In this document: positions 43,720 to 44,897 of the stretch, piece after piece
Layout of the letters: each line of letters begins with the position of its first letter
Position numbering within the stretch: position 1 is the stretch's first letter
Origin: a virus
Lineage: Duplodnaviria > Heunggongvirae > Uroviricota > Caudoviricetes
Virus record (IMG/VR): IMGVR_UViG_2925903241_000005
Coordinates: 1 to 46,437 of that record
DNA length: 46,437 nt
Strand: one strand, 5' to 3'
Notes under the pieces: model-generated
Database searches by the model: none
The model's input: the letters and a program-made list of their open reading frames with translations, nothing else
Told to the model about the DNA's origin: nothing
Translations under genes and position numbers: made by a program

Positions 43720-43856
43720 TTATTAAATTCTCCACTTTATTTTGACTGACAATAACGGTTGCTAAGGCATAGAGTAAAGCTTAATTTAAAAGGCAGTTCT
43801 ATGCCCATTTACCATAACTTCTCCCTTGTCCAGAAAGCAATATTTATTAATAAAAT

Positions 43857-44819
43857 TTATTTACCCTTATTATACTCTTCAGTAATCTTATTCATGGATG
43901 ATATATATTTATCCAGCCCACCATAGTTGGCTATCATTCGAAATGAATTACGGTACTCTGCCATTTTCACATCATGATTAGTAATTCCACACCAGCCACA
44001 AACTTTATTTTCCATGTTTAAAGGCTCATAACATTTTTTACATTGCCTTGATGCAGGTATTATATTGCCATTAATAAATTGGTGTGATTTGAGATTTTGA
44101 GATAAAAGAAATGGTGTAGTTGTTGTTTTTCCTATTACCATTTCGAAATATCTACATTTAGCCTTTTTAGCTAAAGATTGAATTTTCTGCTTTAATAAAT
44201 CATTTGATTTGTGCCCAACTATAACTCCAGTTATACAATTAATCGGTACCGGAAGGAGCATAAGATTGTCATTCAGTTTAGTAAGTGCTTTCTCATTAAT
44301 TATTACGCGACGTTCCTGCTCATAACTCCAGCAAGTTTGTTTTGTCAAATATGCGGCTGTCATTATACAGGATTGTAGCCAGTAGATATAACGAGGTTTA
44401 CAGATATGAAATGCTCTCGCCAGAATGTCTTCAATACCTGTATCTGGAGAATCTTTATATTCAACATCTGCTATTGAACTATGATCCTGGAAGCCGATTT
44501 CATCCAAATACTTTTTAAACTTCTCCTCATTAATCTCTATTACAAAACCAGAAGAATTACCTGCATAATGTGCCCACATAGGTGGTATCACAGGGCTTTT
44601 CGTAAAACAAGTTGCTGGTTGTTTTGTAACCATGGCAATCATTTCATTGTAAAATGCTAACTCATCAGAACCGCGATTAAAATCAATAGTAAGGAAAAAC
44701 TCATAGGGATCATTATATTCATGTAAATGAGAGAATTTTATTCCTATATGTGTTTCATCCATCATCAATTTATCAATTATATCCGCTCCCATAAACTTAT
44801 ACAAATTGGTCATATACAA
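43857..44819 (-). CDS. DUF2971-family protein with C-terminal C4 zinc ribbon (cargo)
   Basis: ..IKFSHLHEYNDPYEF.. and ..MWAHYAGNSSGFVIEI.. DUF2971-like motifs; C-terminal CKKCYEPLNMENKVCGWCG; AT-rich; paralogous to the frameshifted gene at 1886..2688. Confidence 0.55.
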   Translation of the reverse strand: MYMTNLYKFMGADIIDKLMMDETHIGIKFSHLHEYNDPYEFFLTIDFNRGSDELAFYNEMIAMVTKQPATCFTKSPVIPPMWAHYAGNSSGFVIEINEEKFKKYLDEIGFQDHSSIADVEYKDSPDTGIEDILARAFHICKPRYIYWLQSCIMTAAYLTKQTCWSYEQERRVIINEKALTKLNDNLMLLPVPINCITGVIVGHKSNDLLKQKIQSLAKKAKCRYFEMVIGKTTTTPFLLSQNLKSHQFINGNIIPASRQCKKCYEPLNMENKVCGWCGITNHDVKMAEYRNSFRMIANYGGLDKYISSMNKITEEYNKGK

Positions 44820-44897
44820 CTCCTTTTTTATAAAATAACATTTTAAATCATATGATTATGGAGGCACAAAATCCAGTAATTAGTTTTCAAGCCGGTT

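Follow-up and report, generated by a model that had tools for sequence, protein, structure and literature searches.

What does a single intact, AT-rich gene do at the integrase end of a prophage? The question is raised by a 46,437-nucleotide stretch of viral DNA (Duplodnaviria; Heunggongvirae; Uroviricota; Caudoviricetes; IMG/VR record IMGVR_UViG_2925903241_000005, positions 1 to 46,437), hereafter the window, to which all coordinates refer unless a locus is named. The window is a segment of the E. coli chromosome, 100% identical to strain 51008369SK1 and to many others, and contains a lambdoid prophage inserted at the tRNA-Pro gene proL, between yejM and yejO. Next to the integrase gene (int) of this prophage lies a gene for a protein of the DUF2971 family that ends in a zinc ribbon. 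Our preferred reading, which we hold with modest confidence, is that this gene encodes a stand-alone, prophage-carried anti-phage effector of the abortive-infection (Abi) or superinfection-exclusion type. The gene and its closest features are listed here, with lengths in amino acids (aa).

43857..44813, minus strand: DUF2971/zinc-ribbon gene, 318 aa (MTNLYKF...), with ATG at 44813; an alternative TTG at 44819 gives 320 aa.
44820..44825, minus strand: Shine-Dalgarno sequence AAGGAG, read from the sequence, six bases upstream of the ATG at 44813.
43791..43806, minus strand: weak terminator-like hairpin, found by consensus scan only, 3' of the DUF2971 gene in the gap between it and int.
42535..43719, plus strand: resident lambda-type tyrosine integrase with an Arm DNA-binding domain; the RefSeq start is 42541.

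The original prediction described an intact, AT-rich gene running antisense beside int, and this description stands. The minus-strand open reading frame (ORF) 43857-44819 is uninterrupted, the guanine-cytosine (GC) content of the gene is 33.3%, compared with 42% for int and 50.7% for the window, and the two genes converge across a gap of 137 bp. The predicted length of 320 aa applies to the ORF read from its TTG. The ATG at 44813, however, is the start used by RefSeq and by all orthologs, and is likely to be the true one because AAGGAG lies six bases upstream of it, whereas the TTG at 44819 would abut that sequence; a product of 318 aa is favoured accordingly.

This is an intact accessory gene under purifying selection. 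The exact protein is present in at least 217 blocks of the assembly collection, in the same context throughout, and comparison with four orthologs of ~80% DNA identity (from E. coli, Klebsiella aerogenes, Enterobacter and Pantoea) gives a dN/dS of 0.08-0.10. Full-length homologs of approximately 305-320 aa, aligning with 95-99% coverage, occur in Enterobacterales, Pseudomonas, Vibrio, Shewanella and the Alpha- and Betaproteobacteria, and sporadically in Chloroflexota, Actinomycetota and others. An exhaustive search of 50%-identity clusters retrieved 557 at E 1e-3 or better and 47 at E 1e-30 or better; judged by sequence, the zinc-ribbon DUF2971 proteins are a small, well-defined subfamily. Separately, several hundred Klebsiella and Enterobacter plasmids carry a DUF2971 gene that is only distantly related (28% identity across aa 3-217) and apparently lacks the zinc-ribbon tail.

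Several lines of evidence bear on what the protein is. Pfam assigns it to DUF2971 (PF11185) with 39.3 bits against a gathering cut-off of 22 (E 1.8e-9), as it does all 36 homologs in our alignment, whose identity to it extends down to 37%. The match covers the entire profile (1-89 of 89) and falls at aa 81-172 (residues are numbered on the 320-aa ORF), so that the DUF2971-like character first proposed is correct but is not located at the extreme N-terminus. The PADLOC check proposed for the protein linked it to the candidate defence family PDC-S31, all five models of which match (E 3.5e-22 to 4.1e-7). Since the best of these spans aa 70-230 only, the zinc-ribbon tail lies outside the PDC-S31 profile. 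NCBIfam returned no match to the 318-aa protein, and its match in PHROGs, phrog_1762, is of unknown function.

The AlphaFold2 model of the protein (predicted local distance difference test 90.6, predicted template-modelling score 0.84) suggests an ADP-ribosyltransferase (ART) fold over approximately aa 1-200; towards the C-terminus come a small beta/alpha region, then a C4 zinc ribbon and finally a tail of three helices. The predicted structure contains the split beta-sheet core of the ART type, and in structure comparisons the closest folds to the model are DarT, a DNA thymidine ADP-ribosyltransferase (7yk3, 7omv, 8baq), and Tpt1/KptA, an NAD-dependent RNA 2'-phosphotransferase (7yw4, 7yw2, 9ld3). 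According to this model, the N-terminal two-thirds of the protein adopts an ART-type fold whose nearest counterparts are enzymes acting on nucleic acids. Foldseek comparison with viral structures gave weak matches only (template-modelling score about 0.3, E 1e-3 or higher), and a Pfam scan of all 36 homologs at E up to 10 brought up noise of the zinc-ribbon type but no ART family, DarT and AbiGi included. Matches to ARF GTPases in a sequence-profile search of the PDB were rejected as chance (E 0.4 or higher); the likeness of their name to ADP-ribosylation is irrelevant.

These findings agree with published work, and the family can no longer be called uncharacterised, as it originally was. A 2025 survey assigns DUF2971, by prediction, to the ARTs and likens it to DarT, AbiGi and Tox-ART-HYD1, noting a weak motif I histidine, a conserved tyrosine and an ExE (PMC12522546). 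Furthermore, a family member has been experimentally validated: Aristaios, a 316-aa single-gene DUF2971 protein on the Lactococcus plasmid pUCCL641, conferred Abi-like phage resistance in a 2024 plasmid screen (PMC11381338), and was later named in a review as a system that disturbs phage transcription (PMC13064643).

Conservation within the subfamily points to two functional elements, whose codons are as follows.

44313..44321, minus strand: ExE codons, E167-Q-E169, within W-x-Y-E-x-E-R-R; invariant in 36 homologs; candidate ART catalytic motif III.
43989..44042, minus strand: C4 zinc ribbon, C260-x2-C263-E-P...C274-x-W-C277; the four cysteines, E265, P266 and W276 are invariant in 36 homologs.

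Forty-five columns of the alignment are invariant across phyla. They include N36-D37-P38-x-E40, C71-F72, W82-A83-H84-Y85, G91-F92, K141, R143, Y157, K160 and W164-x-Y166-E167-x-E169-x-R171, together with the C-terminal N291...R294...G300-x-L302...Y305. In the secondary structure of the AlphaFold2 model, E167-x-E169 directly precedes a beta strand (170-173), and the catalytic glutamate of ARTs is found at the start of a strand. We infer that E167/E169 is the equivalent of ART catalytic motif III; its position agrees with that of the ExE assigned to DUF2971 in the survey (PMC12522546). T70-C71-F72 and Y85 are candidates for motif II. The C4 zinc ribbon that had been read from the sequence is borne out by the invariance of its four cysteines, with only weak Pfam matches (DZR and C1_1) in this region, and the C-terminal module of zinc ribbon and three helices has no structural match in the PDB.

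On the preferred reading, the DUF2971 gene would have a promoter of its own, and the lysogen would make the protein in an inactive state. When a phage infects, some cue from it, probably sensed by the zinc-ribbon/helical module, would prompt the protein to use NAD+ and ADP-ribosylate either nucleic acid or part of the machinery for transcription or replication. This modification would block the expression of phage genes, at the infected cell's expense. In this scheme the enzymatic activity, its target, the trigger, expression in the lysogen and the resulting phenotype are all putative. We also put forward, tentatively, a broader proposal: the zinc-ribbon DUF2971 proteins may form an antitoxin-free, DarT-like branch of nucleic-acid ARTs, in which the C-terminal module acts as a sensor or auto-inhibitor released by a phage cue. 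They would then constitute a self-contained, NAD-dependent Abi switch spread by temperate phages, P4-like satellites and plasmids of Proteobacteria.

The setting of the gene is consistent with a defence function. Four related prophages with ~90% identical int occupy the same site and carry other genes between int and yejO. These encode a 289-aa protein without a Pfam domain, two domain-less 283-aa proteins (one with a 66-aa neighbour) and, in E. coli MJ-T (locus 9363-11002), an AbiL-like pair consisting of an AbiLi ATPase (E 1.6e-64; AAA_21) and a 167-aa partner. The MJ-T interval further holds a DUF4760 protein and a transposase fragment. The interval between int and the attachment site (att) at tRNA-Pro is variable and shows the pattern of a cargo or defence hotspot, bounded by conserved int and att, and the suggestion that accessory cargo sits at the integrase-proximal end of this prophage is supported.

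Homologs elsewhere tell a related story. We inspected ten Pfam-annotated contexts. In four of them the gene occupies the int-att interval, either at tRNA-Pro, as in K. aerogenes and two E. coli types, or at icd, as in Citrobacter. The homolog from Pantoea agglomerans (77% identity; locus 8001-9783) belongs to a P4-like satellite (Psu, Ogr/Delta, AlpA, Ash and a D5-type primase) and adjoins a DUF6650 protein with matches to PDC-M68A and to nuclease effectors in PADLOC. Near this homolog there is also a pair formed by an RNase A-like toxin and a CdiI-like protein. An Edwardsiella prophage has its homolog between Q and the holin gene, that of Serratia adjoins a type III restriction-modification (R-M) system, one is found on a plasmid-like element beside a resolvase and one in an unclassified Pseudomonas island; the tenth, from Morganella, is discussed below.

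A wider census, of 80 species-level loci in GTDB genomes, tempers the expectation that homologs recur beside integrases. That expectation holds for the int-att intervals at tRNA-Pro and icd, but of the 80 loci, searched with an iterated integrase profile, 13 have a tyrosine recombinase within 10 kb and only 3-4 have one directly adjacent. The 122 immediate neighbours at 61 loci include ResIII (5), DEAD (4), AAA_23 (3), TIR (2) and SIR2 (2) proteins, as well as pPIWI-associated nucleases, YoeB and one integrase, and most have no Pfam match. In the window itself, the neighbours of the DUF2971 gene are int and the relic of another integrase. Taken together, the contexts of the homologs are suggestive of a mobile gene of defence-island type rather than of a function tied to element boundaries.

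A number of points weigh against the preferred reading. The histidine of the NAD-binding motif I is not conserved: the alignment has no invariant His or Arg in the first strands, and a lysine occupies the N-terminal strand instead (K8 and K28 are nearly invariant). Expression from a dedicated promoter also meets difficulties, as a sigma-70 scan passed no minus-strand site upstream of the gene, most of whose native upstream region would have been lost in its fusion with the integrase relic. By eye, an unverified TAAAAT lies ~25 nt upstream of the start as a possible -10, with a poor -35 within the relic. With no matched background for the neighbour census, any enrichment in it is no more than suggestive. 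PDC-S31 is itself a candidate system predicted by computation, and the likeness to Aristaios is one of Pfam domain and published description. Finally, in a Morganella lambdoid prophage a 60%-identical homolog is located in the nin region, between Dam/Lar and NinB/Q, where it is co-oriented within the early operon and fits a role in the lytic programme.

This last observation leads to the rival that survives best, although we regard it as fairly unlikely: that the protein is an ART serving the phage's own lytic cycle, through host takeover or counter-defence, and does not protect the lysogen. T4 Alt, ModA and ModB provide the analogy, and the ART fold and the carriage of the DUF2971 family by prophages and satellites speak for such a role. 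The orientation seen in Morganella is not general, however. Here, as at the K. aerogenes, Citrobacter and Edwardsiella loci, the gene stands apart from the neighbouring phage operon as a unit of its own, on the other strand, and many homologs reside in non-phage islands or plasmid-like elements beside R-M, TIR or SIR2 genes. Moreover, tblastn against 50,697 sequenced phage genomes found two distant partial matches only.

That the structural comparison ranks Tpt1/KptA among the closest folds raises a second alternative, in which the protein is not an ART at all. It would instead be a Tpt1-like RNA 2'-phosphotransferase or other RNA-end-modifying enzyme, a non-enzymatic nucleic-acid binder, or a protein with some other accessory role. 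We consider this unlikely. The catalytic set of Tpt1 is Arg-His-Arg-Arg, and an invariant ExE, the candidate motif of our protein, is typical of ARTs and not of Tpt1. The published profile analysis groups DUF2971 with DarT and AbiGi (PMC12522546), and the context of defence islands and mobile elements favours an effector.

The kinship with DarT can also be read differently, since the nearest folds are the toxins of DarTG toxin-antitoxin systems and the gene is found in mobile elements of many kinds. It might then be a selfish element, a DarT-like toxin or addiction module whose effect is to keep the prophage or island stable, with no primary anti-phage role, which we judge quite unlikely. The 122 immediate neighbours match 74 Pfam families, the 25 commonest of which include no macrodomain, and no other conserved candidate antitoxin stands beside the gene in the 61 loci. 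When the two nearest genes on each side were clustered (244 neighbours), the largest cluster spanned three of the 61 loci; as no neighbour family exceeds this number, the gene appears to work alone, without a DarG-like antitoxin. Nor do the orthologous loci share a small conserved flanking ORF, because their upstream regions are unconserved beyond ~40 bp, and a constitutively toxic lone gene would not persist at a dN/dS of 0.1 without a control element. The final possibility, a decaying passenger gene with no current function, is suggested by the pseudogenes around it (the integrase relic, frameshifted DUF2971-like and DinI-like genes and a methyltransferase gene with an internal stop), but is effectively refuted by its conservation: the ORF is intact, with an identical protein in the 217 or more blocks, strong purifying selection and 45 invariant columns.

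If the gene is defence cargo, as we prefer to think, how did it come to lie where it does? The window places a decayed integrase fragment and two further genes outside it.

44862..45262, plus strand: decayed 3' relic of a different, related integrase, equivalent to int aa 255-390, with at least two frameshifts and several stops.
45670-46437, minus strand: gene for a 255-aa TPR-like protein (phrog_17809; weak TPR matches).
45297-45680/45731, minus strand: gene for a 127/144-aa protein (phrog_5176), overlapping the 255-aa gene.

The original prediction took the first of these for a duplicated 3' end of int, and this proved wrong. The relic, which RefSeq annotates as a pseudogene and which begins ~40 bp upstream of the DUF2971 start codon, is only 74-77% identical to the resident int in DNA (blastn) and 39% in protein, spread over three frames and broken by stops (tblastn); it is derived from a different integrase. 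A target-site or tandem duplication of the resident int was therefore ruled out by the ~75% identity. The two overlapping genes, which lie between the relic and the outer attR, add to the cargo of this accessory region. Neither protein has a PADLOC, Pfam or PDB sequence match. The 127/144-aa protein contains an R-x6-H stretch, RAYYGAYH, reminiscent of HEPN motifs but unverified. A 32-nt type I-E CRISPR spacer of E. coli NY1601 (locus 401-435) is identical to 45963-45994, inside the 255-aa gene, and CTT at 45995-45997 of the window supplies the canonical AAG protospacer-adjacent motif on the protospacer strand, which suggests that another E. coli acquired immunity against an element with this cargo gene.

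The outer attR, a copy (91%) of the 46 nt at the 3' end of tRNA-Pro plus terminator, lies ~440 bp past the end of the window, just before yejO. It was located, like the other att copies, by BLAST; ARAGORN detected no tRNA in the window or at the attR copies. The position of the DUF2971 gene was originally given as attP-proximal, and it is indeed at the integrase-proximal end, but attR is ~2 kb further on, with the relic and two genes between. A simpler arrangement exists elsewhere. K. aerogenes has the same int-DUF2971 module, with ~80% DNA identity for each gene, and both there and at a second E. coli locus (L007) the orthologous DUF2971 gene stands directly between int and an att copy. Between these loci and the window, similarity reaches only as far as 44813-44852 and breaks off ~10 bp short of the relic; for the K. 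aerogenes cassette the end is at 44852. The relic and the two outer genes have no match in the phage collection, and wherever E. coli has them, it has the DUF2971 gene as well; no intact donor prophage for them was found in either.

We infer that proL first received two related phages side by side, in tandem. One deletion, running from just upstream of the DUF2971 gene into approximately codon 255 of the second integrase, would then have fused the two elements and stacked two sets of integrase-proximal cargo. From the sequence, tandem integration followed by one deletion would be the simplest origin of the composite.

At the opposite end of the prophage lie two further remnants.

1901..2688, plus strand: frameshifted, distant DUF2971-family pseudogene at the tail-fibre end, the shift being near an A-run at ~2255-2290.
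1731..1771, plus strand: relic of the tRNA-Pro end and the terminator downstream of it (90% across 41 nt); a degenerate T-arm-like stretch precedes it at ~1700-1730.

The first of these had been proposed as a frameshifted paralog of the right-end gene. Its membership of the family is sound: once rejoined, the protein passes the Pfam DUF2971 threshold (E 2.4e-6) and keeps the E-x-E-x-x-R motif. It has no zinc ribbon, however, and tblastn finds no detectable similarity between the two proteins, whose identity in an hhalign profile alignment is ~19%. Recent paralogy of the two DUF2971 genes was ruled out by this absence of BLAST similarity. The idea that two family members bracket the prophage and mark a boundary-associated function likewise does not survive. 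In the circular phage the ends are joined at attP, and tail-fibre genes and int then flank one accessory region, which corresponds to lambda's b region and holds both DUF2971 genes, the integrase relic, the two-gene operon, a DinI-like gene and a DUF4236 gene. Since integration at attP splits this contiguous region, the bracketing is not evidence of a boundary function.

The tRNA-Pro relic sits between the DUF4236 gene and the frameshifted DUF2971-like gene, and looks, from its sequence, like an old att scar within the left accessory region. Many other lambdoid prophages have their DinI-like gene immediately beside the tail-fibre assembly gene. For this reason, ~2.4 kb appears to have been added at the left end, possibly in another att-mediated accretion event.

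The prophage as a whole may be partly defective. RefSeq records a frameshift in the left-end DinI-like gene (window 1-207 plus upstream sequence) and an internal stop in a phage N6-adenine methyltransferase gene (window about 34566-35219), and partial genes are also present in the tail-fibre region. The composite of int, DUF2971 gene, relic and two outer genes is nevertheless found unchanged in 53 of 5,426 complete E. coli genomes, from several lineages; the prophage carriers (~1% of complete genomes) include the clinical lineages ST131 and ST167. In different E. coli assemblies the identical module is joined to two different repressor/cro immunity regions (about 15000-17500 of each locus), which shows lambdoid mosaicism around a stable right end. 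Because it is unchanged in several lineages and combined with a different immunity region, the composite now travels as part of the phage. In E. coli T309.Ta3 (NZ_CP128255.1 1760146-1765261), an IS903B element is annotated within the composite, and the feature list shows it between int and the DUF2971 gene.

What is new here is an enterobacterial representative with a zinc ribbon; DUF2971, PDC-S31 and Aristaios were already known as candidate or validated defence. If active, the protein would be a compact single-protein anti-phage system and a genetically tractable enterobacterial model for DUF2971, of which one distant Gram-positive member has been tested so far. Its carriage in ST131 and ST167 would then also make it relevant to the host range of phages used in therapy. 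More generally, the locus illustrates how cargo accumulates at the integrase end of prophages, and if the history proposed above is true, integrase scars record how the fusion of tandem prophages stacks defence cargo next to attP.

Comparison with known systems places the gene among several partial relatives. PDC-S31 resembles it in single-gene status and in its model matches; a full-text literature search found no paper mentioning PDC-S31. DarT, of DarTG, shares 8-12% identity only, and no macrodomain partner such as its DarG is among the 25 commonest families immediately beside DUF2971 genes. Compared with DarT, the DUF2971 protein has large helical inserts and the additional zinc-ribbon/helical C-terminal module, and does not conserve the motif I histidine. 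Tpt1/KptA shows no sequence similarity to it, and a housekeeping role in tRNA splicing or RNA repair misfits a mobile, patchy distribution. Aristaios is alike, by description, in being a single gene of nearly the same length (316 versus 318 aa), in its DUF2971 domain and predicted ART fold and in its carriage on a mobile element, which is a plasmid of a Gram-positive host rather than an enterobacterial prophage; no Lactococcus record is among the ten organisms named in the summary of our plasmid-collection tblastn. Variable hotspots for defence and moron genes are a familiar feature of temperate phages and their satellites, as exemplified by the P2/P4 hotspots, the b region of lambda and int-att morons. 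Our locus is like these hotspots in lying between a conserved int and att, and in holding unrelated cargo in its sisters, a known Abi system included.

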